Shown one piece after another: positions 8,791-29,729 of a stretch of 64,000 bases of DNA. Made by a program: the position numbers and the translations under genes. Numbering within the stretch: position 1 is the first letter of the stretch; every line of letters begins with the position of its first letter. The stretch spans positions 8,131 through 72,130 of the forward strand of contig JBPOHR010000011.1 in the NCBI GenBank assembly GCA_052035325.1, read 5' to 3'. The notes beneath the pieces are model-generated. The model was not told the DNA's origin. It did no database searches and worked only from the letters and a program-made list of their open reading frames with translations. The stretch is from Patescibacteria group bacterium (GTDB taxonomy: Bacteria; Patescibacteriota; Microgenomatia; UBA1400; PJMF01).

Positions 8791-10809
8791 ATGGTAGATT
8801 CGACTGCCCCGTTAGCTACTAATACTGATAGTGTCGTTGTCCCTGATGTGACAATGCCTACGATTGGTGGTGTTGCTCCTGTTGATGAAGCGCCAAAACT
8901 GGTGCTCACCAATGTCGATGGTGAGGCTTCGACACAGTCCGCTCAATCCGAAATCGCCGCTGCCGCTGCTGCAATCGGTGGTGCTGTGCTCGACACACCG
9001 GTAGTTTCCCCTACTCCAGTCCCTACCCCTGTGCAACCTCTCCCCTCCCCGCCAGCAGCGTTGCCTACACAATTTGGGACAGTATCAACGATTGTAGAGG
9101 TTCTTCAGCAACAGGGCGCGCTTACCCAAGGTCAAGTGGATCAGCTAAATGTTGAGCACATCCAGACAAATCGGACATTGGAAGAATTGCTCGAAGAAAA
9201 GAAGTGGCTCGACGAAGAGACCTTTTGCAAAGCCAAAGCTCAGGTGTACGGTGTTCCCTTTGTGCGACTAAGTGAGATTGGTGTCTCACCGGAAGCTTTG
9301 ACGGCCCTCTCAGAAACGGTGGCGCGGCGTTATGCAATGTTGCCGTTTAATCTAGATAAAAATGAGCGAACGTTGTATGTTGCCATGAAAAATCCACTGG
9401 ATTTGTCGGCAATTGATTTTGCTGAACAAAAGACAGGGTATCGGCTGGTCGTTCACTATGCTATGCCAAGTGAACTTGAGCGATTGGTTGCAGAGCGATA
9501 TGCACAGAGTTTATCAAGTGAAGTAACAGAAGCACTACAAGAAACGGCACAGGTCGCTGAAGCCAAAGCACAACAGCAAAACTTAGCAAATTTATCAGTT
9601 GAAGTAGTTAGAGAAGCGCCAATTAGTAAAATTGTTGAAACTATCCTTACTTTTGCCATCAAGTCCCGGGCGTCAGATGTGCATATTGAGCCGCTTGCCG
9701 ATAAGACACGAGTCAGATATCGCATTGACGGTATTTTGACAGAAAAACTCATTTTGCCTCGGTCGGTACATGAAGCAACAGTGTCGCGGGTAAAGATATT
9801 GTCAGATTTGAAGATTGATGAGAAGCGTATCCCCCAAGATGGGCGGTTCAATTTTGTAGCAGGTGCTGATGAAGTTGACTTGCGGGTCTCTACTCTACCA
9901 ACCATTAACGGTGAAAAAGTGGTGATGCGGCTCTTACGAAAAAATGCCCAGGTCCCCTCGATCGAAGATTTGGGATTAACGGGTATTGCCCTTCGCAATA
10001 TTCAAGAAGCTATCAAAGTGCCTCACGGCATTGTGTTGGTGACTGGACCCACTGGTTCAGGAAAAACCACTACGCTCTACTCCGTCCTTCACGCCATCAA
10101 CACGCCGAAAGTCAATGTGATGACGCTCGAAGATCCCGTGGAGTACCAGATGCCAGGTGTCAATCAGGTGCAAATTAATCCTCAGGCAGGACTTACCTTT
10201 GCTTCCGGTTTGAGGTCATTCTTGCGTCAAGATCCCAACGTCATTATGGTAGGTGAAATTCGTGACAGTGAGACGGCAGAGTTGGCAATCCAGGCTTCAC
10301 TCACTGGTCACTTGGTTTTTTCGACACTACATACTTCATCGGCAGCAGGAGCATTGCCTCGGTTGCTCGATATGGGTGCCGAACCATTTTTGTTGGCTTC
10401 CTCGATGACGTTGACAATGGGACAGCGGGTGGTGCGATTGATCAACCCTGATTACAAGGAAGAGTATCAACCAGATCCTGCTGTTCTACAGGATGTGCGG
10501 ACAGTGCTTGGTCCAATGTATGAACAGTGGTGCAGTGCCAATCAAAAAGATCCAGCTAAGTTGACCTTGTATCGTACGAGAAAAGATCGTCCCCAGACGG
10601 AGCCGGAGTACAAAGGTCGGATGGCAATCTTTGAGGTGATGAAGATAACCGATGAGATCGGTCACATGATTATGCAACGCAAAACAGCAAATGAAATTGA
10701 GGCTGTCGCCATGAAAAATGGTATGCTGTTAATGAAACAGGATGGATATATCAAAGCATTAGAGGGGAAAACCACTATCGAAGAAGTATTACGGGTGGCC
10801 CAGGTATAA
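8791..10809 (+). CDS. pilB: Type IV pilus assembly ATPase PilB (GspE family) with Pro/Ala-rich N-terminal extension
   Basis: GSPII_E N-domain, Walker A VTGPTGSGKTTTLYS, Asp/His boxes and tetracysteine-like region; 672 aa. Confidence 0.9.
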   Translation: MVDSTAPLATNTDSVVVPDVTMPTIGGVAPVDEAPKLVLTNVDGEASTQSAQSEIAAAAAAIGGAVLDTPVVSPTPVPTPVQPLPSPPAALPTQFGTVSTIVEVLQQQGALTQGQVDQLNVEHIQTNRTLEELLEEKKWLDEETFCKAKAQVYGVPFVRLSEIGVSPEALTALSETVARRYAMLPFNLDKNERTLYVAMKNPLDLSAIDFAEQKTGYRLVVHYAMPSELERLVAERYAQSLSSEVTEALQETAQVAEAKAQQQNLANLSVEVVREAPISKIVETILTFAIKSRASDVHIEPLADKTRVRYRIDGILTEKLILPRSVHEATVSRVKILSDLKIDEKRIPQDGRFNFVAGADEVDLRVSTLPTINGEKVVMRLLRKNAQVPSIEDLGLTGIALRNIQEAIKVPHGIVLVTGPTGSGKTTTLYSVLHAINTPKVNVMTLEDPVEYQMPGVNQVQINPQAGLTFASGLRSFLRQDPNVIMVGEIRDSETAELAIQASLTGHLVFSTLHTSSAAGALPRLLDMGAEPFLLASSMTLTMGQRVVRLINPDYKEEYQPDPAVLQDVRTVLGPMYEQWCSANQKDPAKLTLYRTRKDRPQTEPEYKGRMAIFEVMKITDEIGHMIMQRKTANEIEAVAMKNGMLLMKQDGYIKALEGKTTIEEVLRVAQV

Positions 10810-10822
10810 GGATACAGACAGT

Positions 10823-11941
10823 ATGACGATTCATGATATTTTACAGATGCTGGTGGACCAAGAAGGTTCAGATATCCACATTGTGACGGGAATGCCACCG
10901 ATGTTGCGGGTGCATGGCGAGTTACAGGCGATTCCTGGCGCACCAGCGTTGACCCAAGAACAAGCCGAAGCTCTCATCATTCCAATCCTCAAACCAGAGC
11001 AAAAAGACTTTGTTAATGTCAACAAAGAAATTGACTTTGGTTATCAATTCTTGGACAAGGGTCGATTTCGCGTCAATGTCTATCATCAGCAAAATAAAAT
11101 GGCCGCAGCCTTGCGGTTGATTCCGGCTCGGGTCAAAACGATTGACGAACTCCAACTACCTGCAGTGTTTCATCAATTGACCGAGTTCAAGCAGGGTTTG
11201 GTATTGGTGACTGGGCCAACAGGTGAAGGGAAATCTACCACGTTGGCCGCCCTAATTGAGGAAATCAATGCTACTCGAGCAGATCATGTATTGACGATTG
11301 AAGATCCGATCGAGTTTATCTACACACCAAAAAAAAGCTTGTTGTCACAACGTGAAATTGGTCAAGATACCAATGGTTGGGATATTGCACTGCGCTCGGC
11401 ATTGCGTGAGGATCCTGATGTGGTGTTAGTGGGTGAGATGCGTGATTTTGAGACGATTGCTTCGGCAATTACGGTAGCCGAGACGGGTCATTTAGTCTTT
11501 GCGACGCTCCATACTGCGACCGCCGCACAAACAATTGATCGTATCATTGATGTCTTCCCAGCTCATCAACAAGGCCAAATCCGACAACAACTCGCGGCAA
11601 CACTGCAAGCAGTGGTATCACAACGACTAATTCCCCTTGTCCAAGGTGGACGGACAGCAGCATTCGAAGTGATGCTGGCCAATTCAGCTGTTCGCAATCT
11701 GATTCGTGAAGGTAAAACATTCCAAATCGACAATGTGATGCAGACATCAGGTGAGCAAGGCATGATGCTCATTGAGACGTATTTGTTGGGTCTGGTACAG
11801 CAAGGAGCAATTTCTCGAGAAAAAGCTCTTGAACATGCCTTTAGACCTGATGAACTGGAGAGAATTCTTGGATCAAATGAGGTAGTAGCACCCACCTATG
11901 GTGTCGAGAGTACCACCCAGATGCCTGGGACAGGAATGTAA
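10823..11941 (+). CDS. pilT: Twitching motility ATPase PilT
   Basis: Walker A VLVTGPTGEGKSTTLAAL, ...HLVFATLHT, PilT-length 372 aa, immediately downstream of pilB. Confidence 0.9.
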   Translation: MTIHDILQMLVDQEGSDIHIVTGMPPMLRVHGELQAIPGAPALTQEQAEALIIPILKPEQKDFVNVNKEIDFGYQFLDKGRFRVNVYHQQNKMAAALRLIPARVKTIDELQLPAVFHQLTEFKQGLVLVTGPTGEGKSTTLAALIEEINATRADHVLTIEDPIEFIYTPKKSLLSQREIGQDTNGWDIALRSALREDPDVVLVGEMRDFETIASAITVAETGHLVFATLHTATAAQTIDRIIDVFPAHQQGQIRQQLAATLQAVVSQRLIPLVQGGRTAAFEVMLANSAVRNLIREGKTFQIDNVMQTSGEQGMMLIETYLLGLVQQGAISREKALEHAFRPDELERILGSNEVVAPTYGVESTTQMPGTGM

Positions 11942-11943
11942 CC

Positions 11944-13146
11944 ATGGATATTTTTAAGTACAAAGTCAAAAATCAGCATGGAGAAACGATTGCTGGCAAG
12001 GTAGAGGCGCAGAGTCTAGCTCAAGCCGCAGCAGTATTGCGGGGACGCGGTTTGTTGGTGATCTCTGTCAAACCACAAAGCTCGTTTACTAGTGCGAAAC
12101 TACAAGAGTTTTTCGGGGGCGTTAAGCAAGATGAAGTAGTGACCCTGACGAGACAACTATCGACCATGATCACTGCTGGCTTACCACTTATCCAGGCAAT
12201 GTCGATTTTGGCGCAACAAAGCAAGCCTTCCCTTTCGCACCTGGTAAGCGAGTTACAGCGAGAAATTGAAGGCGGCAGCACGTTTGCCAAAGCGTTGGAG
12301 CGATTCCCGAAACAATTTTCTCGGGTCTATATTCAGCTAGTCCGGGCTGGTGAAATTGGCGGTGTCTTGGATGAAGTGTTGCAACGTCTAGCAGACAATA
12401 TGGAAAAAGATAAAGAGTTTCGTGCGAAGACGCGTGGGGCACTCATTTATCCGGCAATCGTTGTCATGGCATTGGTAGTAGTCGCAGCGGTGATGATGAT
12501 CTTTGTGATTCCAAAATTGACGGAAATGTACAAAGATTTTGGTGCAGAACTTCCACTGCCGACGCAAATTTTAATCAGCATGTCCAACTTTTCAGTCAAC
12601 TACTGGTGGATTATCCTGGCGGGAGTGATTGGCGGGACAGTATTCTTTAAGCGGTGGGTTGCAACCAAAGCCGGTCGGCACACCTTTGACAATTTCAAAC
12701 TCAAGATTCCTGTTTTCGGTATCCTTGTCTCAAAGATTATCCTGACCGAGTTTGCACGGACGCTTTCGTTGCTACTGGGCGCGGGCATATCCCTTCTACA
12801 GGCTTTGCAGATCGTGTCAGGTGCTTCAAGCAATGTCATTTTTCGCGAGGCGATGGAAGAATCTGCTCGACAAGTTGAGAAAGGTGTGCCCTTGTCTCAA
12901 TCTTTGTCGAGTTACAAAGTATTTCCACCTATTTTGTCACAAATGATTGCAGTAGGAGAAGAAACGGGCAAACTTGATGACGTGTTGATGAAGCTGTCAA
13001 AATACTTTGAAGCAGAGAGTGAAAATGCCGTGAAAAATATGACAACAGCATTGGAACCGATGATCATGATTGTGTTAGGAATTGGTGTGGGCGTGATGGT
13101 TATCGCCGTGATTATGCCAATTTACAATTTGACGAGTCAGTTTTAG
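11944..13146 (+). CDS. pilC: Type IV pilus platform protein PilC (GspF family)
   Basis: Two T2SS-F repeats, 3 TM segments, 400 aa, start overlaps the pilT stop. Confidence 0.85.
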   Translation: MDIFKYKVKNQHGETIAGKVEAQSLAQAAAVLRGRGLLVISVKPQSSFTSAKLQEFFGGVKQDEVVTLTRQLSTMITAGLPLIQAMSILAQQSKPSLSHLVSELQREIEGGSTFAKALERFPKQFSRVYIQLVRAGEIGGVLDEVLQRLADNMEKDKEFRAKTRGALIYPAIVVMALVVVAAVMMIFVIPKLTEMYKDFGAELPLPTQILISMSNFSVNYWWIILAGVIGGTVFFKRWVATKAGRHTFDNFKLKIPVFGILVSKIILTEFARTLSLLLGAGISLLQALQIVSGASSNVIFREAMEESARQVEKGVPLSQSLSSYKVFPPILSQMIAVGEETGKLDDVLMKLSKYFEAESENAVKNMTTALEPMIMIVLGIGVGVMVIAVIMPIYNLTSQF

Positions 13147-13172
13147 TTGGCAAGCAAGCGTTTTGTAGTGAT

Positions 13173-13298: not shown

Positions 13299-13946
13299 AT
13301 GTATTCTCCAAAAATGCTTACTCGCAGGCTGTCAGCGCAGCTGCATTCTCGTCAGTTAGTTCAAGCTGGTTTCACCATGATTGAGCTCTTGGTGGTGATT
13401 GCCATTCTAGGTATTTTGGCTGTAGCCGTACTTTCAGCAATCAACCCTATTGAGCAAATCAATCGGGGTCGCGATACGGCTTCCCAATCTGATGCGGAAC
13501 AGCTGCTGTCCGCTATTGATCGCTACGTAGCTTTCCAAGGCTATTTGCCATGGCAAAGTTCTCCAGATTCAACCACGCGCGAACTTGCTTGGGGCGAGTT
13601 TACTGATACGTTGGTGGATGATGGCGCTCCTACTGCATGTGCGGTTTATGTCAAACTCGGCGAAGGTGACACAAATTGTGAGGGCGCAGGTGAGCTCAAG
13701 GCGACCTTCTTCAATCGGATCCTCCGGGCCACTACACCAAATGCTAATCCACTCTACGTCTATCGCGGTGCTGGCGTGAGTGATAGTACCTATGCTTGCT
13801 TTGTGCCACAGTCACAAGCCTTCATGAACTTGGCAGTCAAGCGATGTGGAACTGCCGGAGATGGTTTGCCAACTGATGTTGATGCAACAACTGCTGATCT
13901 CATCTGTCCGGCTGATCCCGCAGGCACGTTCTACTGTATTCCTTAA
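13299..13946 (+). CDS. pilA: Type IV (major) pilin, class III signal peptide
   Basis: Prepilin motif ...QAG/FTMIELLVVIAILGILAVAV with Glu at +5; C-terminal Cys pairs; follows a long 5' intergenic region. Confidence 0.85.
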   Translation: MYSPKMLTRRLSAQLHSRQLVQAGFTMIELLVVIAILGILAVAVLSAINPIEQINRGRDTASQSDAEQLLSAIDRYVAFQGYLPWQSSPDSTTRELAWGEFTDTLVDDGAPTACAVYVKLGEGDTNCEGAGELKATFFNRILRATTPNANPLYVYRGAGVSDSTYACFVPQSQAFMNLAVKRCGTAGDGLPTDVDATTADLICPADPAGTFYCIP

Positions 13947-14031: not shown

Positions 14032-14865
14032 ATGCTTATCGCTTTTTTGTTGACCTCTACTCTACTTTTTGTCATCGGTGCTATTTTGGGAAGTTTTCTC
14101 AATGTGGTGATTTATCGCACACTCGATGATGATCCCGTCAAGCGACATGAGTCTTGGATGTCAGGATGGTCGCGGTGTGACTCATGCCACCACCGAATTG
14201 CCTGGTACGACAATATTCCACTCGTGTCGTACGTGGTATTGCAGGCCAAGTGTCGTAACTGTCATAAGCCAATCGGGGCAGCCCACCCCATGGTGGAGCT
14301 ACTGACAGGATCACTGCTGGTGTGGTGGTATTGGGGTGGTTCATTGTTTTTCCAGATTACCAAAGCACCGTTCCATACATTACAGCCGCTATTTTGGTTG
14401 AGTGTGGGTGTGTTGTTATTGGTGATTGCTTTGGCCGATCTTCGTTACTGGATTATTCCTGACTGGGCTGTGGTGATGTTGACTGGCTTGACTGTTCTGT
14501 ATCGAGTAGTCTTGGTAGGTGCTGGAGTGATGCAGTATCCCGATCTGGTGGCAACGCTGATTGCCAGTGTGCTAGCGACCGCCGGCTTGGGCGTATTATG
14601 GCTTGCCACCAAACGACAAGGTATTGGTTTGGGTGATGTTAAGTTGATGTTTCCACTGGGGTTGCTGGTGGGTTGGCCAAATGTGTTGGTGACGTTATTC
14701 TTGGGTTTTGTGTTGGGAGCGGTGGTTGGTATTGCCTTAGTCTTGCGCAAAACAAAAAACATTCATCAGGCAATCCCCTTTGGACCTTTTTTGGTACTCG
14801 CAAGTTGTGTAAGCTTAGTATGGGGAGACCGCATTGTGTCGTGGTATCTCCAGTTGCTTCGATGA
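14032..14865 (+). CDS. pilD: Prepilin peptidase PilD (A24 family)
   Basis: Zn-binding CDSCHHRI...CRNCHKPI tetracysteine, multi-TM, two catalytic Asp regions. Confidence 0.85.
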   Translation: MLIAFLLTSTLLFVIGAILGSFLNVVIYRTLDDDPVKRHESWMSGWSRCDSCHHRIAWYDNIPLVSYVVLQAKCRNCHKPIGAAHPMVELLTGSLLVWWYWGGSLFFQITKAPFHTLQPLFWLSVGVLLLVIALADLRYWIIPDWAVVMLTGLTVLYRVVLVGAGVMQYPDLVATLIASVLATAGLGVLWLATKRQGIGLGDVKLMFPLGLLVGWPNVLVTLFLGFVLGAVVGIALVLRKTKNIHQAIPFGPFLVLASCVSLVWGDRIVSWYLQLLR

Positions 14866-15785
14866 GAATCTTACGTTTTTTTATCACATCTCTTCTTATT
14901 ACTGCTTTGTTGGCAGGCACAGTATTTGTAATAGCTCGAGAAGCACTGCTTTTTTTGGCTACTAATCAAGTTAAATCGAGCATCACAACTATAGCTAGGA
15001 CCAATTATCTTCCTGGGGTGCCCCATATTGATTGTCAAACTCAGGGAAAAATTACCAGTGACATGACATTGATTAACGTGTATGCAGTCCAGCTAGGTTT
15101 TAGTGACGATCAGCATTTCACCTGGGAAGTTATTTGCGATTCCCCTCTCCGCGAGCCAAAAGTGTTGGCAGACTATGTATTACCACCTTTTGTCTACAAA
15201 ATAGCAGGCTCAGGTGGCCTTGTTTGGCGACAGCCGTACTCTGCTTTCACTTTGGAGGTATGGGGACGTCGTCGATCGTTTATATTAGAAAATCAATCTC
15301 TCCGTGTTACAGAAGGTAGCTTGACGCAGCCTCCTGATCAGCAACCAGTGGTGATGTGTGCGGGGATGGGTTACCAGTGTTGTCAACTTGATTCCGAGCA
15401 AGGTCTGGGGGCGGTGGCATCTGAAGTGCGAGACTGTCCACTGTCTTGTTTTGCACGCTGTCAAAGTCGACCAGTTATTTTGTCATTTAATACTGAACCA
15501 TATACTGATGCTCAAACTCGAGTGCTTGAAGTTGCTTCTGGGGATTTGATTTCATTTAATTATGTCATCGACGCAGGTGCGGGTGGTGATGTGACAACAG
15601 AGCTGTCTTTTGGGGATGGTGAAGTGAGTAAAGGTACAGAAGCAACAGCAACGGTTGAGCATACCTATCGGTGCCTGGCGCAGGTATGCGAATATCGGGC
15701 TACATTGGAGGCGACAGATGCTAGAGGGGCGACATCGCCGAGCAGTACAGTCAACACACTTACCATCAGGGTGACAGGCCGCTAA
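14862..15785 (+). CDS. Membrane-anchored Cys-rich protein with C-terminal PKD-like domain
   Basis: N-terminal TM helix, many Cys, LSFGDGEVSKG...VEHTY....YRATLEATDARG resembles the PKD signature (WDFGDG...HTY); ATGA start/stop overlap with pilD. Confidence 0.5.
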   Translation: MRILRFFITSLLITALLAGTVFVIAREALLFLATNQVKSSITTIARTNYLPGVPHIDCQTQGKITSDMTLINVYAVQLGFSDDQHFTWEVICDSPLREPKVLADYVLPPFVYKIAGSGGLVWRQPYSAFTLEVWGRRRSFILENQSLRVTEGSLTQPPDQQPVVMCAGMGYQCCQLDSEQGLGAVASEVRDCPLSCFARCQSRPVILSFNTEPYTDAQTRVLEVASGDLISFNYVIDAGAGGDVTTELSFGDGEVSKGTEATATVEHTYRCLAQVCEYRATLEATDARGATSPSSTVNTLTIRVTGR

Positions 15786-15799: not shown

Positions 15800-16261
15800 G
15801 TGATCATGAGCTTTCTTTTTTCTCAGCAAAAAACTCGACGTGCCAATGGGTTTACTCTGATTGAAATGTTGATTGTGATGGTAATTATTGGGATTTTGAC
15901 AACCTTGGTGGCGACCAACTTAGTGACGGCGCAGAGCCGTGGACGCGACGCGAAACGCAGGGCTGACATAAAAGCACTCCAGACAGCCTTCGAACTGTAC
16001 TACTCTGAAAATGGCTCATATGCCGCAACGTGTGATGCAATGGCCACAACGGCCTATCTTCCTCAGGGAGTTACTGCTGACCCTTCGACAAGTATCCCCT
16101 ACACGCACCAGAGCACTTGCCAAGTTGATACCACTGATTATTGTATTTGTGCGGAACTAGAGCGCGGCGGCGGCAATGCCACTGAGGGTCCTAGTTCGGC
16201 GCAATGTACGTATGCCAGTTCTGGTGAACGTCTCTGGTACTGCCAGAGTAATGTGCAGTAA
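15800..16261 (+). CDS. Type IV pilin/pseudopilin
   Basis: N-terminal ...ANG/FTLIEMLIVMVIIGIL prepilin motif; Cys pairs in C-terminal half. Confidence 0.75.
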   Translation: MIMSFLFSQQKTRRANGFTLIEMLIVMVIIGILTTLVATNLVTAQSRGRDAKRRADIKALQTAFELYYSENGSYAATCDAMATTAYLPQGVTADPSTSIPYTHQSTCQVDTTDYCICAELERGGGNATEGPSSAQCTYASSGERLWYCQSNVQ

Positions 16262-16270
16262 AGGTATGGT

Positions 16271-16756
16271 ATGACACAACACACTCACTCTACCCTCCCC
16301 CCGCGAGCGACCGGTTTTACCCTGATTGAAATTCTGATTGCAGTAGCGATTATGGTGATTTTAACCACGATTGGTTTGGTAAGTTACCGACAGGTGGGGA
16401 TTGGTGCTCGGGATGGCAAACGCAAAGCAGATTTAGAATCTGTACGCCAGGCATTGGTGTTTTATCGCACTGATGAGGGGATGTATCCGGATATAGCGAA
16501 TGCTGATATTAGTGGTGATTGTAGTGGCGGCTCTGATGCTCGCAGTGGTTTTGAGGAAATGCTTGGTGAATTGTCGAGCGAAGGGTATGTGACGGTGACC
16601 GGGAATGGTCTGAAAGATCCAAAGGATGGTATAGAGTGCTATGGGTATCGATATCGCAGTCCTGACAACGGAGCAACGTTTGAACTATGTGCCAAATTAG
16701 AGAGTGATGCAACTCCCACCACTCATAGTGATGACTATTGTGCCAACAGTCCATAA
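16271..16756 (+). CDS. Type IV pilin/pseudopilin
   Basis: ...ATG/FTLIEILIAVAIMVIL prepilin motif. Confidence 0.75.
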   Translation: MTQHTHSTLPPRATGFTLIEILIAVAIMVILTTIGLVSYRQVGIGARDGKRKADLESVRQALVFYRTDEGMYPDIANADISGDCSGGSDARSGFEEMLGELSSEGYVTVTGNGLKDPKDGIECYGYRYRSPDNGATFELCAKLESDATPTTHSDDYCANSP

Positions 16757-17252
16757 CACACTCATATCTGGACGCCAAGCTGGTTTCTCGGCTGGGTTTA
16801 CTATGATCGAATTGTTGGTCACGGTGACGGTTTTGTTGTTGATAACTGGATCAGGTATAGCAGCTATGATGCGGTTCAACGACCGCCAGTCTTTGCGAGA
16901 TAGTGCGCGAACATTGCAATCAACGCTGAAAAGTGCTGCTACGAGGGCAAAAATTGGTGATGTTCCTTCCGCATGTTTTGACGCTGCCGCAAAGTTGACA
17001 GGATACCGAGTCACTTTGATTCAAGGTACAGGAATAGTGACGGTTGAAGCAATGTGTGGGGCCCAAATCGTTTTGGTTGATCAGTTTTCCCTACCCAATT
17101 TTGTGGTGAGTGATACCACCGCCACTTTGGTGTTTTGGCCACTGTATGGAGGTGTGCAGGGAGCAACAGTCATTACGTTGGAGAAGGCACCGTTGCAGTA
17201 TCAGTTTGAAGTGACAACCGAGGGTGAGATTACTGACGGGGATTTTGAATGA
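16704..17252 (+). CDS. Type IV minor pilin-like protein (long leader; overlaps previous gene by 53 nt)
   Basis: ...SAG/FTMIELLVTVTVLLL prepilin motif; only in-frame ATG upstream is 16704. Confidence 0.6.
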   Translation: MMQLPPLIVMTIVPTVHNTLISGRQAGFSAGFTMIELLVTVTVLLLITGSGIAAMMRFNDRQSLRDSARTLQSTLKSAATRAKIGDVPSACFDAAAKLTGYRVTLIQGTGIVTVEAMCGAQIVLVDQFSLPNFVVSDTTATLVFWPLYGGVQGATVITLEKAPLQYQFEVTTEGEITDGDFE

Positions 17253-17761: not shown

Positions 17762-17820
17762 TAAAAACTTAGTGCTGTAATAGCTGGTTTTTAATCGATA
17801 AATTACGCTAAAAATAAAAA

Positions 17821-18792: not shown

Positions 18793-18796
18793 TTCA

Positions 18797-21884: not shown

Positions 21885-22399
21885 TTTTGGTATAAAAGTT
21901 GAAGTTCGTTTATCGAGCGACTTATTGTAACCACTTCACTGCTGCCGGTAAGATCCTTTAAATCCGATTCGTTTGGAACAAACATAATCACCACCCAGTC
22001 CTTGTTTAGGTTAGTGATATCCAACAAGGGTGTCAGTTGAAAGTTAATAGTTGAAGGAATTTTGAAATCACTGATCTGCGATGTTGCCATGTATGGATTA
22101 TTGAAGTCGATTTGTCGTACTGTGATTGTTTTTTGTTTTCCTTGATACGATGAGTGAAGTCGCCAACTATTTGCCGATGTATCTTTTCTCAGTGTGCCGA
22201 CAATGTATACAAATGGATTACTTTGAAGACGATTTATTCCATAATGTATTTGAGTTTTAGTAGATGATAAAGATAGATCGATTTCAGGTGGTGTGCTTGG
22301 AATACTGAGCGGCGTATATCGTTGTCGCAACAGAAACAACCCTCCGACAAGTAAACATACTAGCGCTACAACAACTAACCAACGACGTAAATGATTCAC
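21881..22399 (-). CDS. Hypothetical membrane-anchored protein
   Basis: N-terminal TM LVVVALVCLLVGGLFLL; 4-nt overlap with downstream gene. Confidence 0.4.
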   Translation of the reverse strand: MNHLRRWLVVVALVCLLVGGLFLLRQRYTPLSIPSTPPEIDLSLSSTKTQIHYGINRLQSNPFVYIVGTLRKDTSANSWRLHSSYQGKQKTITVRQIDFNNPYMATSQISDFKIPSTINFQLTPLLDITNLNKDWVVIMFVPNESDLKDLTGSSEVVTISRSINELQLLYQK

Positions 22400-22451: not shown

Positions 22452-24458
22452 TTATTCGGTGTCCCCGTACCAGAGATCATTGCGAAAGTCATCTACTATT
22501 TCAGTTGGCACGAGCATTGTACTTGCTGAAACAATAAGAGTTTTTCTACTATTAGGAGCATTAGAATTTCCTACCAGAAAATCCATTGTTGTTTGGTCGT
22601 CTCCTCCAGCTGAGTACAGCGCTGAGGCAAGAGCGGCACAGTTTACACCACAATCGAAATGATCAGCTAATCCCTGGGTTAAACTATCTAAAGAAAATAT
22701 TTCTGGATATTCGTTAGACAAACCAAGTCCAAACAAAGTTCCAGGAGGCATATCTGTTTGAAGTGATTCGAATGGACGTCCTTGCATGTCAGCATGCGAT
22801 CCACCGCCATGAATGACAACAGCACTCCCTTCTTGCATTGGGAGTGAGAGTAATACCCACCCTGTCCCATCGCCGGTTGGTACTAACATGTCCAAAAAGC
22901 GTAGAGTTCCTCGAATATCTCCATTTACATATGGACGTGTGCGTATGCCCATAAACCAGCCGACTACTACTAGTCCATCTTGACCTAATATCCTCTCAGG
23001 ATTTGGAGCAATACCCGGTCGCAATCCTGTGAGCTCATTATTAAATGGTACGACAAAGTCATGACCATCAATTCTGAGCACATACCCATTTTCTGTTGAT
23101 GAGTAGCTGATATTAGAGCGAGCCAAGACTTGCTCAATTTGATCAAATGTAGAAGTCGGGTTTTCAAGGACGTTTAGTAAGCTCATTGAGCTCATCGCCT
23201 CAATATCCACAAGCGTTTCCAATACAACAGGGCTGTCTCCAGGATTCAATCCTGGCAGAACTAGCTCAGTCACATTAAGGCTTACCACTCCAAGATTAAT
23301 CCATCCCACCTGACCATTGACACTAACTCGTATCCAGTGACTTTCTGGATCATTTTCACCACCAGAAATCGTCTTCATCGTGGGGAGTCCCATGTATGTT
23401 GATGGCTCAACATTTTCAGTCCAACCCTCTGGTTCATCCGTCGGTGTTTGTGTAGGGACTGGTGTTTCTTCAGTACCAACCGAGCCTATCTCATTGTCCC
23501 CAAACCTTGGCTCAGAGCGCAGGTTAATAGTAGTATTTGGTGTAATTGTTACAGCTGGCAATAATGCTATCGGGATACCTTTTGCAATTATGGTTTTAAT
23601 ATGTACATTTGACCCATCGGTGTTGAAAGATAAAAGAATAAAATTGCCAACCGGTGGGAACTCAAAGTCTTCCAAGCTGGGGTAGGTGGTACGCAAGGTA
23701 GCTATTGTTTCATCTGTTACTTGTATAAATGTTGCTCGCTCATTCTCATTGGCAAACAAATATGAGACAATTTGTTCTCCATTTTGTCCTGTAACTGTCG
23801 TGATCAGTGAACCGGTACCGACAACAGGGCCGTCAGGTACGGTAAATGATTCCGTGCAATGCAATGCAGCTAGCACTCTGAAACCAGTGCGATCTGCGTT
23901 TGGCGTTACAAACAATCTTAACGAAAAGTTGTCCTCGGAAATATCTTCCCGGCCTTCAATGAACCTCCCCATCACTTGCAGCAAAGACTGGATTTCCCTT
24001 CCCAACTCGGAGTTTTCGTCAATTCCATACTCCCCGAAGGGATTTGTCACGGGAAGTTCAAAAGGTTCCGTACCTGGTTGTGTGGCTGAATAGGACAAAA
24101 CTTCAAAAATACCGCCAGACTCTGCAGTGATGCTGACAGGGGTATAGCCTTGAATTTCGTTAGATTCGATCTGTTTTTCAGGCGAGCGATGCTCCAAAAG
24201 CGAGTCAATCTCAGTGTTAGGAGGTGCAATGTGTGGATCTCCGGCAGGAGGATCTTCGTTATTTATTACGTCTCGCTCAGCATTGGCGGGTATTACCCGT
24301 CCAAGCAGTGCAGATAGCGCAACTGCTAAAACCACCAGACGTCTATTAAGTCCACGTCTCTCACCTGAGCGCGGAACCATATTCGGCAATTTACCACGAT
24401 CACGTACAATTGTTGTGCCTGCTGTTTCTTTTAAATTGTTCATTGTTTCGTCTACCAT
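22452..24458 (-). CDS. Large hypothetical secreted/membrane-anchored protein
   Basis: N-terminal anchor LVVLAVALSALLG; PT-rich linker; no confidently recognisable catalytic motif. Confidence 0.4.
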   Translation of the reverse strand: MVDETMNNLKETAGTTIVRDRGKLPNMVPRSGERRGLNRRLVVLAVALSALLGRVIPANAERDVINNEDPPAGDPHIAPPNTEIDSLLEHRSPEKQIESNEIQGYTPVSITAESGGIFEVLSYSATQPGTEPFELPVTNPFGEYGIDENSELGREIQSLLQVMGRFIEGREDISEDNFSLRLFVTPNADRTGFRVLAALHCTESFTVPDGPVVGTGSLITTVTGQNGEQIVSYLFANENERATFIQVTDETIATLRTTYPSLEDFEFPPVGNFILLSFNTDGSNVHIKTIIAKGIPIALLPAVTITPNTTINLRSEPRFGDNEIGSVGTEETPVPTQTPTDEPEGWTENVEPSTYMGLPTMKTISGGENDPESHWIRVSVNGQVGWINLGVVSLNVTELVLPGLNPGDSPVVLETLVDIEAMSSMSLLNVLENPTSTFDQIEQVLARSNISYSSTENGYVLRIDGHDFVVPFNNELTGLRPGIAPNPERILGQDGLVVVGWFMGIRTRPYVNGDIRGTLRFLDMLVPTGDGTGWVLLSLPMQEGSAVVIHGGGSHADMQGRPFESLQTDMPPGTLFGLGLSNEYPEIFSLDSLTQGLADHFDCGVNCAALASALYSAGGDDQTTMDFLVGNSNAPNSRKTLIVSASTMLVPTEIVDDFRNDLWYGDTE

Positions 24459-24766: not shown

Positions 24767-25741
24767 ATGTTAGATGAACAGAAATCTAAAAGAATTTTTA
24801 TTGAATCTCCACTCTTAGATGTAAATCAAGTAGCTGCCTTTTTGTTTTCACTTCGACCAGAAAGGCCCCAAAGAGTGGTTGCATCACGATATGTTGCACG
24901 GGCTAAACTGACAAGTAGAGACAGACAAAACACAAAAAAAGCATATGAAAATGGTTCGGCTACGGAATTTGCTTCACTATATGAATGGGATCCTTCTGTT
25001 GTTAGGTCATCATTGATTGATAGCATAGGTCCTTTTGTCGAGGCTTTTGATGATACTAATAAAGATAAAAAAAAGTCTTGGATTTTGTTGGTTGGTTGTG
25101 GAACGGGCAGGGATTTCATGGAACTTTGGAAAAGAGGATTTAATGCTCTAGCTTTTGATATCTCTATGGCAATGATAGAAAATCTTAAAAGAATTTTGAC
25201 AAATTCATTAGTGCCACCTCATAATGTAGCGTTAATGTTGAACGAAGTTGCTCGTGACCTCAATCAGGTGGTCTTTGTTGCGGATGTAATGGACCCCTCT
25301 TGGAGGCGAAACAGCAGCGTTGCATCAGGTGAAGTTGATTTATTTGATGCTGTATTTGCTGAAACTGTTTTAGGGCATCTAGACAAGGAAGAAGTATTTG
25401 AATTTTTTGAAAGATATTCTAACAATCTGTCACAGGGTGGAATAATACGAGCAGGTTTGAGAATTTCCAAGAGTGGAAAAGTGTTTATTCTTGAAGACAG
25501 TCTTGGATCAAGAAGTTTTACAACGTGGAAATTCGAAGATCTATGGTTGACTACTCTAACGAGAAAAGGTACACAAATTACAGATTATGATCACATGGGC
25601 GAGCTGGGTGAATTACTCAAATATCTAGCAGAAATAGGTTTGAGAATTATAAAAATCTACACGAATAAACATCCATGCTCCACAGAAGAAAACCCCCGAC
25701 CAGATACATTAAATCTGATTTTACAAAAAGTAACTAGATAG
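24767..25741 (+). CDS. Class I SAM-dependent methyltransferase (AT-rich island)
   Basis: Motif I LLVGCGTGRDFMEL and post-I acidic residue ..AFDIS; the ORF is about 30-38% GC vs about 48% in flanking DNA. Confidence 0.6.
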   Translation: MLDEQKSKRIFIESPLLDVNQVAAFLFSLRPERPQRVVASRYVARAKLTSRDRQNTKKAYENGSATEFASLYEWDPSVVRSSLIDSIGPFVEAFDDTNKDKKKSWILLVGCGTGRDFMELWKRGFNALAFDISMAMIENLKRILTNSLVPPHNVALMLNEVARDLNQVVFVADVMDPSWRRNSSVASGEVDLFDAVFAETVLGHLDKEEVFEFFERYSNNLSQGGIIRAGLRISKSGKVFILEDSLGSRSFTTWKFEDLWLTTLTRKGTQITDYDHMGELGELLKYLAEIGLRIIKIYTNKHPCSTEENPRPDTLNLILQKVTR

Positions 25742-25780: not shown

Positions 25781-26365
25781 ATGAATATTTATTTTACTGC
25801 AGCTATTTTTCAAATGCCGACACATGGTGGCTATTACGCAAAGATAATTGAGACATTAAAAAAACAAGGCCATAACGTCGTTCACGATCATATTACCGAT
25901 TATACTCCCGATGATTTTGGATCTCTTGTAAGTCAGACAGACGAGAACAAGAAGCAATACTACTCCAAGGTATTGAAATGGATTTCCAAGGCAGACTTAG
26001 TAGTTGCAGAATTGTCATTTCCCTCAACTTTGAATGTAGGACATGAGGTAACGATGGCTCTGAGTAAGGGTAAGCCTGTAGTTGGTCTATACTTTAAAGA
26101 TCAAGAATCTTTTTTCTTTGAAGGGATTCAATCAGACAAATTTGTTTACGAATCATATACAGCTGAGACCTTAGCTGAAACACTTGAGCAAGCACTAGAA
26201 TATGCTCAGGAAATTTCAGATACCCGTTTCAATTTCTTCATCTCCCCTTCTCTCTCGCACTACCTAGACTGGGTGTCACAAACAAAAAAAATCCCCAGGT
26301 CTGTCTACCTTCGTCAACTGATTGAAGAGGACCGTGAGCAGAATAAAGCATACTTTGATGCGTAG
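25781..26365 (+). CDS. Nucleoside 2-deoxyribosyltransferase-like (NDT/DNPH1-like) protein
   Basis: MNIYFTAAIF start and ...LNVGHEVTMALSKGKPVVGLY resemble the NDT 'MKIYLAGPFF ... GTAFEIGYA.A.GKPV' core; paralog of 33398..33835. Confidence 0.5.
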   Translation: MNIYFTAAIFQMPTHGGYYAKIIETLKKQGHNVVHDHITDYTPDDFGSLVSQTDENKKQYYSKVLKWISKADLVVAELSFPSTLNVGHEVTMALSKGKPVVGLYFKDQESFFFEGIQSDKFVYESYTAETLAETLEQALEYAQEISDTRFNFFISPSLSHYLDWVSQTKKIPRSVYLRQLIEEDREQNKAYFDA

Positions 26366-26454
26366 CTAGAGCTGGTGAGCTGTCTCCCCGACACAAGAGA
26401 CCATTTTTTCCTCAAGCATTGCAGAATGTCGCCAAACCCATTACGATGGTGTAG

Positions 26455-27267
26455 ATGGCACGATCTATTGTCGCACGCGGCTGCGATCCCCAACCACTTC
26501 GTCACTCCTCAGAATCTGGCCAGATTGGTGTGGTTATTTTGTTGATTATGGTGGTTATTTTGACCATAGGTTTGTCAGTTGCCACTCGGACGACCCAAGA
26601 AACCTTTTTGACGACCCAAACAGCAGAGTCGGCGCGCGTCTTCAACGCCGCTGAAGCCGGCGCAGAAGCCGCGCTTAGCATGGATTTTGCATCACTTACC
26701 GACCAGATCACGAACGGTTCGGTCACGACTATCCCCGACACCACCGTCAATTATCAAGTACAACAACACCAGACACTCGAGACAAAAATCTTTGAAGGCG
26801 TGCCGGTGGCAGTTGATGTCACCAATGTCTCGGGAGGTCAAGGCATTGTGATCCAGTGGAGTAAGCAAGACTGCGCCAACAATCCTGCGGCCTTTTTGGC
26901 GACTATTTACTCTGAGCAAGCTGGTGTGACGAAGACTCGTTATCGGGCAATTGGCAACTGCAATCGAGGTGACAACTTCGAGCAAGCCACTTCGCTAGCT
27001 GCCACCGAACCGTACCGATTTGAGTTTACGTTGACGCTGCAGGTTGATGATCTGTATGTGCGTCTGTTACCTCTCTACAATGACACTGATTTGCGAGTGA
27101 GTGCGACAGGAGGTTGGTCACTTCCCACCCAGTTTTACACAATCCGATCTGAAGCCAGAAATGACTTAGGCAATGAGACGCGCATCATTGAAGTCAATCG
27201 CACATTGCCCACTGCGCCGGCGATTCTTGATTTTGCGCTATTTAGTGGGGGTGCAGTTGTCAAATAA
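26455..27267 (+). CDS. PilX-like type IV pilus minor component (PilX_N-like N-terminus)
   Basis: ...GQIGVVILLIMVVILTIGLSVATRTTQETF....ARVFNAAEAGAEAAL matches the PilX N-domain pattern; directly upstream of pilM. Confidence 0.5.
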   Translation: MARSIVARGCDPQPLRHSSESGQIGVVILLIMVVILTIGLSVATRTTQETFLTTQTAESARVFNAAEAGAEAALSMDFASLTDQITNGSVTTIPDTTVNYQVQQHQTLETKIFEGVPVAVDVTNVSGGQGIVIQWSKQDCANNPAAFLATIYSEQAGVTKTRYRAIGNCNRGDNFEQATSLAATEPYRFEFTLTLQVDDLYVRLLPLYNDTDLRVSATGGWSLPTQFYTIRSEARNDLGNETRIIEVNRTLPTAPAILDFALFSGGAVVK

Positions 27268-27317
27268 TTTTCTCGTAGTCTTGATGGCGTAATTCTGGTA
27301 AAGTGGATATATAGCCT

Positions 27318-28331
27318 ATGCCCATAGCTCTTGCCCTCGATATCGGTTCCTACACTATCAAAGCCATTAGTGCCAAACCAGGCGCGCGTCCCAACGTGCA
27401 GCGTGTGGTGGAGGTATTTAATCCCCTAGGCATTAGTGTGCCTGGAGACGAGGCTCAGATCGAGAAGTTGGCAGCACAGGTTCAAGCAGTCATCACCGAT
27501 AACAAGTTACCGACGATCGATGTTCGGTTGGCCCTCCCAGAAAGCGTGGTTTCAACCAAGGTTATTTCTTTACCGAGTTTGACTGATGCTGAATTAGCTT
27601 CGGCAATTGGTTGGCAAGCAGAACAACACATTCCCATCCCCCCCGAAGAGCTTTCTCTCGAGTATGAAGTGTTGTTTCGACCACCGCGCAAGGACAAAAA
27701 TACACTCATGCGAGTGTTGTTGGTTGGTGTGCGTAAATCGGTGATTGAGAAATACATGGCTGTGTTTGGTCTACTCGGTATCGAGCCGACAATTCTCGAG
27801 ACCCAGATGATGTCAATTATTCGCTCGGCGCAGTTTGCAGCGACCGATCCAGCTACTTTGATAGTTCACTTGGGAGCCGCTACCATGGATATGGCTTTGG
27901 TCAATCAGGGTCAACTTGATTTTGTCATTTCGCACTTGAGTGGTGGTCAATCTTTGACCAAACTTCTGTCACAGCAGATTGGTTTGGATGCTGCCCAGGC
28001 AGAAAGTTACAAACGGACGTATGGTCTAGAGCCTGAACAGTTCCAAGGTAAGGTGCGTGGGGTGCTTTTGCCTGCAACAACAATATTACTTAGCGAGATG
28101 CAAAAATCGGTTCGTTTTTTCTTATCGCAACATCCCGCTGAACAAGTCAAACGAATAGTACTCTCGGGTGGGACTGCTCAGTTGCCAGGCTTTGTACAGT
28201 ATATTACTCAAGAACTGGGCACGGAAGTGCTCGTGGCAGCTCCCTTTACCCCCGCAACTGGTCAATTACCGTCAGTCAATCACGCAGCTCTGACCGTGTG
28301 TATGGGTCTGTTGATGCGGGAAGGCAACTAG
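27318..28331 (+). CDS. pilM: Type IV pilus assembly protein PilM (actin-like ATPase fold)
   Basis: ALDIGSYTIKAI start, actin/FtsA-like fold length (337 aa), followed by pilN/pilO. Confidence 0.8.
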   Translation: MPIALALDIGSYTIKAISAKPGARPNVQRVVEVFNPLGISVPGDEAQIEKLAAQVQAVITDNKLPTIDVRLALPESVVSTKVISLPSLTDAELASAIGWQAEQHIPIPPEELSLEYEVLFRPPRKDKNTLMRVLLVGVRKSVIEKYMAVFGLLGIEPTILETQMMSIIRSAQFAATDPATLIVHLGAATMDMALVNQGQLDFVISHLSGGQSLTKLLSQQIGLDAAQAESYKRTYGLEPEQFQGKVRGVLLPATTILLSEMQKSVRFFLSQHPAEQVKRIVLSGGTAQLPGFVQYITQELGTEVLVAAPFTPATGQLPSVNHAALTVCMGLLMREGN

Positions 28332-28337
28332 CCGACC

Positions 28338-28892
28338 ATGCCAAGTATTAACTTTTTGCGCGAGCGTCGCCGAAAACTGACCAAACAGCAAAAGTTCGAT
28401 TTCCAGGCTTTTCGCGTAACCAGTGTGGTCTGTGTGGTGGCGGTGGTGTTGTTGGTTGCAACTGTATCGGCTCGACTCGCTTTGGCTATGATGGTAAGTC
28501 GCTCGACTCAAGAACAAAATCGGTTGATGACGAGCATCAAACAGCAGGAAACAAACGAACGTACGTATCTAGTTTTTGCGGCAAAATTGAAGGCTCTCAG
28601 TGAGCTCTTGGCTCAGCGTCAGGATAAACAGTTAGCTATTACCTACTTTTCAACAATTTTTGGTGAAGGTGTGTTGGTAAGTGACATATCCTACGATGGT
28701 GATGCAGAGACATTGACCTTTGGATTGAAAGCTGCAGACGTTTTTACCCTCGAAAAAGTACTACAAGTTCTCAAGAGCGAAGATGTAAAGCAACAATTTG
28801 AAGGAGTGAAAACTGACGCTATTTCTCGCTCAACAACTGCTGAATATCAGACTACTGTCACGATTGTTCTAAAAAAGGATTCTGACCAATAA
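28338..28892 (+). CDS. pilN: Type IV pilus assembly protein PilN
   Basis: Basic N-terminus, single TM, coiled coil; positional homolog. Confidence 0.65.
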   Translation: MPSINFLRERRRKLTKQQKFDFQAFRVTSVVCVVAVVLLVATVSARLALAMMVSRSTQEQNRLMTSIKQQETNERTYLVFAAKLKALSELLAQRQDKQLAITYFSTIFGEGVLVSDISYDGDAETLTFGLKAADVFTLEKVLQVLKSEDVKQQFEGVKTDAISRSTTAEYQTTVTIVLKKDSDQ

Positions 28893-28895
28893 ACT

Positions 28896-29729
28896 ATGCC
28901 CTCTGCCAAGCCTGTCGCTACCACTCAAGAATTTTCGATCAGATATCTGATGGATGTCAGGCGATACATGGCGTTGACGATTTTGCTGATAACTACCTCC
29001 CTTGCGGTATCTTTCTTTGGTACTTGGCCACAAGTGCAGGCTAGCATCGAGATGTGGCGCACGTATGAAGCGAGTGAGGCAAAGGTCAAGTCATTGGCAG
29101 CCAAAAATCGCCAGCTTCAAGATGTGCTTGACCCTACCCTACTTGATCAGATAAATACCGTGGACAGTTTGTTACCTTCACGCAAACCGCTGATTGAACT
29201 ATTGACCGCAGTCAACGTGCTCAGTAAGCAAACTCAAGTAGTAATTACCTCGGTCGAACTGCGGCCTGGGGCAATTGCGACTGACGGTGCTAAGGTGTCA
29301 AATCGTGGCCAACTGAAAAAGGGTGACAGCGACACACTCGAGATCAATATGATTGTGAGCGGGACATTATCTCAAGTGAATCAATTTTTCAATACTATTG
29401 AGCGGACTACCCCACTGACGACTATAACGTCACTTTCCTTGACACCCAAAGACAGAAACACTGCTCTAGTATCGACAGATACCATTGCCTCGTTACAAAA
29501 TCGTGCATACCAGGCAGAATTGACACTTGCTGCTTCATACTTCACTCGTCCGGTGAGTGCCAATCTAGATGCCTCATTGCCGCAACTTAGTAGTGATCAA
29601 ACCAAGTTGATTAGTGATTTGAAGACATTTACGGTCAACAAAATTGACCCCCAAACCCAGATTTTGGGTGGTGGCCTTGAGGATCTGTTTAAAACAGTCA
29701 AACCAGAGATTGTGACGATTGGTGAGTAG
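28896..29729 (+). CDS. pilO: Type IV pilus assembly protein PilO
   Basis: Single N-terminal TM plus coiled coil, position after pilN. Confidence 0.6.
   Translation: MPSAKPVATTQEFSIRYLMDVRRYMALTILLITTSLAVSFFGTWPQVQASIEMWRTYEASEAKVKSLAAKNRQLQDVLDPTLLDQINTVDSLLPSRKPLIELLTAVNVLSKQTQVVITSVELRPGAIATDGAKVSNRGQLKKGDSDTLEINMIVSGTLSQVNQFFNTIERTTPLTTITSLSLTPKDRNTALVSTDTIASLQNRAYQAELTLAASYFTRPVSANLDASLPQLSSDQTKLISDLKTFTVNKIDPQTQILGGGLEDLFKTVKPEIVTIGE

Follow-up and report, generated by a model that had tools for sequence, protein, structure and literature searches.

How Candidate Phyla Radiation (CPR; Patescibacteria) bacteria recognise and attach to their hosts is an open question, and type IV pili head the list of candidates. 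Pili are seen on CPR cells by cryo-electron microscopy (cryo-EM), and to our knowledge no CPR pilus tip adhesin has been named outside Saccharibacteria. The question is raised in concrete form by a pilus locus at positions 8791–29729 of a 64,000-nt stretch of contig JBPOHR010000011.1 (hereafter the window) from a Patescibacteria genome of the Microgenomatia lineage PJMF01, in which genes for the pilus machinery are interleaved with large open reading frames (ORFs) that a preliminary description had left without assignable function. It is reasonably probable that the locus encodes the type IVa-like pilus set typical of this lineage in a single-membrane bacterium, and that one of the interleaved products, an 834-aa protein (cys834), is a plug or adhesin at the pilus tip. 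The gene list is based on an ORF map, translations and Pfam scans, which outside the pilus locus covered the window ORFs of ≥300 aa. For comparison, 80 loci from species-representative genomes were fetched with a profile of the C-terminal 300 residues of cys834, and their ORFs were labelled by matching to the proteins of the window; related loci carry the labels L001, L002 and so on.

The candidate tip protein is encoded by cys834 (19380..21884, minus strand; 834 aa), and its 39 Cys residues and its Sec signal, a cleavable signal peptide of the AxA type, confirm the earlier listing of a large Cys-rich secreted protein at this place. It comprises a variable Cys-rich N-terminal region, an FN3/Ig-like middle and a conserved C-terminal beta-solenoid of ~300 aa ending in ...FRPDLVNTLPEPMTRPSYTWQETN, and it has no N_methyl, PilX_N or other pilin match in Pfam or NCBIfam. 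A word-indexed homology search with the full 834-aa protein returned the protein itself and one relative. An exhaustive profile search returned 1274 clusters at E ≤0.001, of which 301 were at ≤1e-30, nearly all of them aligned to the C-terminal end of the profile and variable at their N-termini. The family has in common a Sec signal peptide, a variable region with 30–50 Cys, FN3/Ig-like modules and the C-domain of ~300 aa, which carries the motifs WWQ..GG, ENYxYF, IVIFVxGNLTI, GGFLAFIVSGNI, EGVYIADG and FVGxGxFVGW and has an almost invariant end, (F/Y)RPDFxxNxPExMxxPxYxWQETN. Compared with its counterpart in the closest locus, L001, cys834 is 46–51% identical over the N-terminal 290 residues, with many gaps, and 60–66% identical beyond them; only residues 342–834 align with the protein of L002.

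The gene belongs to a convergent minus-strand operon of four genes, which encode in order proteins of 668, 172, 834 and 193 aa (24458 down to 18797), the last being a prepilin (pilin193). In 35 related loci the gene downstream of the solenoid gene, on the same strand and at a gap of −35 to +76 nt, likewise encodes a homologue of pilin193, with a canonical G↓FTLIE site, and in the window the stop of the 834-aa frame lies 1 nt from the ATG of the 193-aa pilin. This order is held across genomes whose orthologues are only 28–49% identical. No other observation speaks as strongly for a joint function of the two proteins as this conserved coupling, and with the predicted fold described below it lends support to the idea, already present in the preliminary description, that cys834 has a role at the tip or in attachment.

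A confident AlphaFold2 model of the last 300 residues (pLDDT 84.9, pTM 0.86) predicts a beta-solenoid of the type seen in ice-binding proteins (IBPs), with disorder limited to one internal loop and the eight C-terminal residues. Among solved structures, the relative that aligns best by length is ComZ, a pilus-tip pilin. The likeness lies in the fold: a profile search of the C-domain against the sequences of the Protein Data Bank (PDB) gave nothing relevant and no sequence similarity to ComZ. Pfam DUF7305 (PF23981) matches 14 of 30 relatives at E ≤0.01, with a best value of 4.3e-7; the relationship is distant, and cys834 belongs to a related, more divergent branch. The beta-propeller family of PilY1, Neisseria_PilC, has no Pfam match in cys834 at E ≤0.01, and the predicted fold is a solenoid. 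The shape of the model might also suggest a genuine ice-binding or antifreeze domain of the DUF3494 type that serves cold adaptation. This is hardly credible, given that Pfam scans of cys834 and of 30 relatives returned no DUF3494 match, leaving DUF7305 as the sole sequence-family signal. Moreover, family members come from metagenome-assembled genomes (MAGs) of CPR and Chloroflexota from groundwater, wastewater and the sea, and are operonic with pilins, and the authors of the ComZ structure found its IBP resemblance uninformative for function (PMC6561018).

The tip role of cys834 is proposed because of the conserved gene coupling together with the predicted fold, and several observations weigh against it. 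Among 79 family loci, 41 have no pil gene in the fetched flanks, including every Chloroflexota copy, so that the solenoid family is not obligatorily pilus-linked. The protein carries a Sec signal and lacks a pilin domain. Its own DUF7305 match reaches 18.2 bits for the whole protein and 20.2 bits for the C-domain, below the 27-bit gathering threshold. The classes assigned to the minor pilins around it, finally, rest on sub-threshold matches to NCBIfam hidden Markov models (HMMs) that are driven by the N-terminal helix. The Sec signal, the missing pilin domain and the 41 loci without pil genes favour the reading that cys834 and its hypervariable partners are ordinary surface or secreted adhesins, or S-layer-like proteins, merely co-located or co-regulated with pilus genes. 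It gains further from triads of the solenoid gene with its two upstream companions (genes X and Y, below) that occur away from pilus loci (L010, L023, L028, L034, L054, L058, L063, L065 and L082) and from the unrelated neighbours of the Chloroflexota copies. It is nevertheless unlikely, though it deserves weight, as it does not account for the operonic coupling (overlap or gap ≤76 nt) to one specific minor pilin family in 35 loci, in genomes with proteins only 30–45% identical, for a pilus-tip pilin as the best-aligned solved relative by length, or for a strongly conserved, predicted-disordered extreme C-terminus that resembles a docking element rather than a free end.

Two companions of the solenoid gene lie upstream of it in the minus-strand operon. 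The first gene, sec668 (22452..24458, minus strand), encodes a hypervariable protein with a hydrophobic segment near residue 41, and tm172 (21881..22399, minus strand), whose stop overlaps the cys834 start as ATGA, encodes an N-terminal transmembrane (TM) anchor and an outside domain of ~150 aa. Positional equivalents of sec668 (gene X) measure 266–963 aa in 34 pilus loci; the 29 gene-X proteins that were aligned show 11% mean column identity and no common Pfam family, with weak SH3_3 matches in 3 of the 29. A TM-anchored ORF of 170–250 aa (gene Y) precedes the solenoid gene in 43 cases, and the 1184-aa solenoid protein of L002 itself begins with a fused TM segment of the Y type. Neither tm172 nor sec668 showed sequence homology to its positional equivalents in blastp, all-vs-all phmmer, hhalign of cluster profiles or Pfam scans of 29 members; only the 169-aa protein of L001 was linked to one cluster of positional equivalents (hhalign 92%). 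Of the earlier suggestion that the 172-aa and 668-aa proteins belong to an attachment apparatus, the N-terminal hydrophobic segments and the presence of positional equivalents in most loci stand, and with no detectable homology the attachment role itself is weakly supported. The two genes, which are kept in position and topology though not in sequence, are hypervariable companions of the solenoid gene; their products may act as co-adhesins or assembly helpers, and turnover of such companion genes is what would be expected of host-specificity determinants.

A more far-reaching version of the tip reading, which we consider improbable as it stands, is that the solenoid protein and the 193-aa PilW-like pilin together form a "split ComZ". 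The invariant, predicted-disordered C-terminus would dock the solenoid on the priming complex, and the X-Y-solenoid triads would be interchangeable host-recognition cassettes for one pilus machine. If this were true, the cassettes, among them off-locus and tandem paralogues whose X, Y and Cys-rich N-regions are hypervariable, would parallel the alternative receptor-binding proteins of phages or Neisseria PilC1/PilC2, and would set host range in Microgenomates-type CPR and, independently of a pilus, in Chloroflexota.

Solenoid genes can be present in more than one copy. In one of the genomes (PJMF01) a pilus-linked copy is accompanied by an off-locus one, and eleven pilus loci hold more than one, adjacent or separated by other genes. 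Where the genes stand in tandem (L033, L038, L047, L048, L050, L051, L055 and L062), the pilin-adjacent copy is short, at ~440 aa, and such copies end differently (e.g. ...FYLRELQPK...) instead of in ...WQETN, which hints at two subfamilies with different docking ends. The Chloroflexota genomes represented by L004–L006 (Aggregatilineales) and by L017 and L025 (Anaerolineales) contain two to three solenoid copies, none of them near pil genes; upstream of the copy in L005 and L006 lies a gene for a 296-aa protein whose signal (RRDFLKLSGFSLG) is twin-arginine-like.

The second protein of interest is encoded by PKD306 (14862..15785, plus strand), a bitopic membrane protein whose PKD domain scores 28.5 bits against a cutoff of 23.5. 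It has a long N-terminal helix followed by two beta-sandwich domains, the last of which is the PKD domain, and ten invariant Cys. Its ATG overlaps the pilD stop as ATGA, which indicates translational coupling to pilD; both the overlap and the above-threshold PKD match bear out what had been noted from the sequence. The gene after pilD encodes a PKD protein in 30 of 33 loci, with gaps of −43 to +77 nt, so that in the synteny comparison it co-varies with the pilus core. Database names for the family are "hypothetical protein" or "PKD domain-containing protein". The PKD protein is a conserved, membrane-anchored partner of pilD and probably part of the envelope-side assembly.

Six genes of the locus have a prepilin motif of the form G↓(F/I)xxxE, at 13299, 15800, 16271, 16704 and 17249 (plus strand) and 18797–19378 (minus strand), and five of the six give N_methyl/TIGR02532 matches above cutoff. 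The four to five prepilin genes counted previously therefore become six, in addition to a PilX-like protein without Glu5. The 215-aa prepilin (13299..13946, plus strand; QAG↓FTMIE; N_methyl 6.1e-7, TIGR02532 4e-8) has counterparts in 27 ORFs of related loci, again placed between pilC and pilD. The 153-aa prepilin (15800..16261, plus strand; ANG↓FTLIE; N_methyl 5.5e-9) is GspG/PilA/ComGC-like, with a GspG match of 1e-14 over residues 17–102 that is below the curated cutoff. Loci without the 215-aa pilin have the 153-aa pilin duplicated, and either of the two proteins is a candidate for the major pilin. Next to the 153-aa gene lies that of a 161-aa prepilin (16271..16756, plus strand; ATG↓FTLIE; N_methyl 4.2e-6) with orthologues in 39 ORFs of related loci.

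The putative minor pilins carry fainter signals. A GspH/FimU-like minor pilin of at most 182 aa (16704..17252, plus strand; SAG↓FTMIE; PRK10506 7.4e-7 and GspH 2.6e-5, both sub-cutoff) has 37 orthologues, and its translation probably begins downstream of the GTG at 16704. It is followed by a PilV/GspI-like minor pilin of 170 aa (17249..17761, plus strand; GSG↓IIEV; TIGR02523 PilV 8.8e-7, sub-cutoff) with 38 orthologues. The 193-aa minor pilin that follows cys834 (18797..19378, minus strand; QRG↓FTLIE; N_methyl 1.9e-7) is weakly PilW/GspJ-like (PRK10557 2.8e-4; GspJ 0.04). The fourth, x270 (26455..27267, plus strand; SGQ↓IGVVI), is a PilX/GspK-like candidate cap protein without Glu5, in which PilX_N matches residues 26–70 at 0.01. 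In its family, PilX_N matches 13 of 17 members, with a best value of 6.5e-6, and the alignment reads SGQ↓IGxII without Glu5, the signature of a PilX/GspK cap. The x270 gene is directly upstream of pilM wherever the fetched locus includes pilM; the fetched stretches of L039 and L032 stop at x270 or just past it. Judged from their sequences, the 182-, 170-, 193- and 270-aa proteins would be the four core minor pilins.

As several of these pilins score best against GspG/H/I/J models, the locus could in principle specify a type II secretion-like pseudopilus or a Com-type machine instead of a surface pilus. This is very unlikely: the locus encodes a PilT retraction ATPase as well as PilM with PilN/O-like proteins, none of the GspC, GspD and GspL/M equivalogs is found at cutoff, two pilus types occur on the CPR bacterium TM7x (PMC11623550), and the minor pilins of Thermus are also pseudopilin-like without being part of a type II secretion system (PMC6561018).

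The core machinery is complete in the sense of the preliminary description, with the pilB-pilT-pilC-pilA-pilD series, a pilX-like gene and pilM-N-O all present, the last two by position and weak matches. The extension ATPase PilB (8791..10809, plus strand; 672 aa; Pfam T2SSE 2.7e-122 and MshEN 3.6e-16) has an MshEN N-domain and an Ala/Pro-rich N-terminal extension, and orthologues at the same position in related loci are 61–76% identical. The retraction ATPase PilT (10823..11941, plus strand; 372 aa; T2SSE 7.6e-41) has orthologues in related loci that are 62–80% identical. The platform protein PilC (11944..13146, plus strand; 400 aa) is matched by T2SSF in two stretches (9.5e-67), and the prepilin peptidase PilD (14032..14865, plus strand; 277 aa) by A24_N_bact (1.2e-27) and Peptidase_A24 (1e-14). 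PilM (27318..28331, plus strand; 337 aa; PilM_2 5.7e-43) is followed by a PilN-like protein (28338..28892, plus strand; 184 aa) with an N-terminal SINFLRERR motif, a subsequent TM segment and a match to the GspL C-terminal region of 2.2e-4, below cutoff; 16 orthologues of it follow pilM in related loci. The PilO-like protein (28896..29729, plus strand; 277 aa) is named for its position after PilN and has a GspM match of 0.064; its L001 orthologue is 52% identical, with a weak PilO Pfam match. The PilN and PilO assignments thus rest on gene order, TM topology and weak GspL-C, GspM and PilO matches.

In keeping with what had been reported for the window, Pfam found no match to the Secretin, PilP or PilF families in any ORF of ≥300 aa across its 64 kb. 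Beyond the window, the secretin-less character would follow from published CPR surveys, and both the absence of PilQ from CPR pilus loci and the inferred non-Gram-negative envelope are explicit in one such survey (bioRxiv 10.1101/335083) and in the paper on the Microgenomates Ch65 genome (PMC7143001). The secretin-less headline is therefore correct and already published, and in itself adds nothing new. The proposed monoderm, CPR-type envelope agrees with a type IVa pilus-type system without outer-membrane parts, and every named relative is Patescibacteria- or Microgenomates-like.

The same machinery bears on whether the pilus serves competence, that is, DNA uptake, with the solenoid protein as a ComZ-like DNA receptor rather than a host adhesin. 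ComZ, which has the same type of solenoid fold, binds DNA and is proposed to lie at the tip (PMC6561018), CPR type IV pili have been proposed for DNA uptake (10.1101/335083; PMC7143001), and a nucleoside-deoxyribosyltransferase (NDT)-like gene is a recurrent neighbour of the locus. Against this, PilT and PilM with PilN/O-like proteins indicate a retractile type IVa pilus, and in the sole CPR bacterium tested the type IVa pilus drives host binding and twitching and T4P-2 mutants are normally competent (PMC11623550). A hypervariable Cys-rich FN3/Ig N-terminal half with hypervariable partners also suits diverse cell surfaces better than uniform DNA, and no sequence similarity to ComZ or to its DNA-binding lysines is established. 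A competence pilus thus appears quite unlikely.

For the preferred reading, a host-binding pilus with cys834 at its tip, the following course may be proposed. By homology, PilD cleaves the six prepilins, PilC, PilB and PilM with the PilN/O-like proteins assemble the pilins, and PilT retracts the fibre. The 182-aa (GspH/FimU-like), 170-aa (PilV/GspI-like), 193-aa (PilW/GspJ-like) and 270-aa (PilX/GspK-like) proteins, on account of their weak HMM similarity and gene order, would form the priming or tip complex, in which the 270-aa protein would act as the cap because it is without Glu5. The accessory proteins bear export signals of the Sec type. The 834-aa protein would be exported by Sec and then oxidised outside the membrane to a disulfide-rich form; an enrichment of MdbA-like extracytoplasmic disulfide oxidoreductases in CPR (10.1101/335083) fits its 39 Cys. 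It may then use its conserved C-domain or tail to dock on the PilW/PilX-like priming complex and be carried out as tip plug and adhesin, with the variable Cys-rich N-terminal half turned outward. The job of PilY1 would in this way be done by a ComZ-type solenoid supplied as a separate subunit; in Thermus ComZ and cyanobacterial PilX it is the task of a solenoid set within the pilin.

On the plus strand of the window, the genes for PilB, PilT, PilC, the 215-aa prepilin, PilD and the PKD protein are followed by four pilin-like genes (15800–17761) and a tandem-repeat protein gene; beyond the convergent operon, the plus strand resumes with genes for a methyltransferase, an NDT-like protein, the 270-aa protein, PilM and two bitopic proteins at the PilN and PilO positions. 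Promoter and terminator scans gave background level only. More than 30 loci keep the order holB, then pilB-pilT-pilC-(215-aa pilin)-pilD-PKD-pilin(s)-182-170, opposite which run, convergently and in this order, gene X, gene Y (whose product has a TM segment at its N-terminus), one or two solenoid genes and the gene for the 193-aa pilin. The second block (270-PilM-N-O) lies beside the minus-strand operon, as in the window, or beyond KH-rpsP-rnc. The term "non-canonical", which had been applied to the system, is accordingly overstated, the layout kept in more than 30 loci being the canonical one for this lineage. The two blocks are real, and their "split" is a lineage-level rearrangement rather than a disruption, since block 2 is placed differently among relatives.

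Between the minus-strand operon and block 2 lies a pair of genes with no structural role in the pilus. The first encodes a class I S-adenosylmethionine (SAM) methyltransferase (24767..25741, plus strand; 324 aa; Methyltransf_25 2.8e-8); the corresponding place in L001, L009, L016, L019 and L039 is filled by methyltransferases with a weak relationship to it or none. The second encodes the NDT-like protein (25781..26365, plus strand; 194 aa; Nuc_deoxyrib_tr 6.8e-9), which has a conserved C-terminal tail and 23 homologous ORFs in related loci. Its gene lies between x270 and gene X in ten loci (L001, L007, L009, L016, L019, L032, L039, L056, L057 and L066), of which at least six also carry a class I methyltransferase there. 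The pair is thus a recurrent resident of the position and not a structural part of the pilus. GC content falls to 0.36–0.44 over 22–26 kb, compared with ~0.47 elsewhere. Of the claim that a low-GC island interrupts the two blocks, the GC drop is confirmed, and the interpretation as a foreign island is rejected because at least six relatives have such a pair in the same place. By eye, the C-terminal tail of the NDT-like protein is ribbon-helix-helix-like, and L024 contains seven NDT-like copies within ~5 kb (1568–6414).

The tandem-repeat protein (17821..18792, plus strand; 323 aa), with a repeat of 3.1 x 54 nt at 17926–18090, has no Pfam match, lacks a counterpart in L001, in L002 and in the 80 genome loci, and shows neither an N-terminal hydrophobic segment nor a signal peptide. 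It had been counted among possible host-attachment or tip components; absent from all relatives, without an export signal and located at a variable insertion spot, it is a strain-specific insert and probably no part of the pilus. The convergent junction between the 170-aa and 193-aa pilin genes (window 17762–18796; also L012, L014, L019, L039 and L075) is a recurrent insertion spot, occupied by unrelated genes in different genomes.

The closest locus, L001, comes from a Logan assembly, and its PilB, PilT, PilC and PilM are 74–83% identical to those of the window; the next closest are L002 and L003 (JGI contigs), followed by GTDB representatives, which are titled Patescibacteria, Microgenomates, Pacebacteria, Woesebacteria or Paceibacterota. 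Orthologues of these four proteins are 55–83% identical and all are found in Patescibacteria-type MAGs. A CPR-type pilus locus is also carried by many species-representative MAGs titled "uncultured Pseudomonadales", "Vitreimonas sp.", "Methylococcaceae" or "Gammaproteobacteria" (L007, L011, L012, L015, L018, L056, L081 and others), and isolate HK-STAS-PATE-15 is among the records with non-CPR titles. The non-CPR titles of these MAGs are probably mislabels.

Outside the pilus locus, Pfam identifies housekeeping genes, among them gyrA/B, RecG, PBP1A, PheST, a TyrS/TrpS-type synthetase, trigger factor, MiaA/B, GAPDH, FemAB and UvrD; the presence of PBP1A and FemAB shows that the cell makes peptidoglycan. 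A tyrosine recombinase at the window edge (136–1134, plus strand; Phage_integrase 4.6e-40 with a SAM-like N-domain) is probably of the XerC/D type, and two ORFs of 467 aa (45989–47392, minus strand) and 415 aa (58738–59985, minus strand) have no Pfam match at E ≤1e-4. A 462-aa multi-pass protein (40180–41568, minus strand) has a sub-threshold Wzy_C/O-antigen-ligase match (8.3e-6) and could be an O-oligosaccharyltransferase of the TfpO/PglL type that glycosylates pilins. GC skew is positive in nearly all 1-kb bins of window positions 1–64000, regardless of gene orientation, and cumulative skew climbs steadily from 0 to 4.85 over the window; a strand-wide G/C disparity is known in some Microgenomates, where it is far stronger than in the window (PMC7143001).

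Among known systems, the tapirins of Caldicellulosiruptor (PDB 6N2C, 4WA0) are a much weaker structural match with another domain organisation, and we know of no pilin coupling of the solenoid–pilin193 kind for them. PilY1/PilC of Pseudomonas, Myxococcus and Neisseria is, like cys834, a large Sec-signal non-pilin protein encoded in a minor-pilin operon, with a conserved C-terminal domain, a variable N-terminal part and, in some species, several paralogues per genome. The C-terminal domain of PilY1, however, is a beta-propeller (Neisseria_PilC), whereas that of cys834 is a predicted solenoid.

Within the CPR, the T4P-1 and T4P-2 pili of TM7x share with this locus large accessory-domain tip candidates, PilX1 and PilX2, and several pil loci, and PilX2 is needed for host binding (PMC11623550; PMC12206443). 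In TM7x, by contrast, PilX1 has a jelly-roll and PilX2 a beta-propeller domain, each fused to a pilin-like protein, and there are no Saccharibacteria among the 80 solenoid-family loci. The Microgenomates Ch65 locus and CPR surveys describe a single locus with PilA, minor pilins, PilD, PilB, PilT, PilC and PilM and without PilQ (PMC7143001; bioRxiv 10.1101/335083), but not the PKD partner of PilD, the solenoid family or the hypervariable companions. Papers on CPR pili name core genes and divergent pilins only, and searches of full-text literature returned nothing that combines Patescibacteria, pilus and solenoid and nothing that mentions DUF7305.

Two further likenesses lie outside the CPR. ComZ (PDB 6QVI), a competence-associated protein from Thermus thermophilus, is built as a GspK-like pilin into which a solenoid is inserted; it binds the neighbouring pilin PilA2 and is argued to lie at the tip (PMC6561018). 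Like cys834, it is encoded beside minor pilins in a non-proteobacterial lineage, and an IBP-type beta-solenoid is predicted in cys834 too. In ComZ, however, the solenoid lies inside a pilin fold with an N-terminal hydrophobic helix, whereas in cys834 it makes up the C-terminal domain of a Cys-rich protein that has a Sec signal, is not a pilin and shows no detectable sequence similarity to ComZ, and the PilX/GspK-like protein of the window is encoded by a separate 270-aa gene 7 kb away. Cyanobacterial PilX homologues also have an inserted IBP-like solenoid, proposed as a tip plug that replaces PilY1 (bioRxiv 10.64898/2026.02.12.705559). They resemble the present case in tying a bulky IBP-like solenoid to the core minor-pilin set where PilY1 is absent, but their solenoid is fused inside the pilin rather than being a separate secreted subunit, and cyanobacteria are diderm with a secretin. 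A candidate tip-associated solenoid of a type IV pilus as a free-standing secreted subunit, and a conserved PKD partner of PilD, are apparently undescribed. Given ComZ and PilX the finding is not astonishing; it supplies concrete, testable candidates for host recognition by CPR bacteria, since "hypothetical" ORFs become a PilD-coupled PKD membrane protein, a very large Cys-rich family of ComZ-type solenoids locked to one minor pilin, and their hypervariable companions. It would extend the emerging idea that beta-solenoids, and not PilY1 propellers, cap type IV pili outside Proteobacteria.

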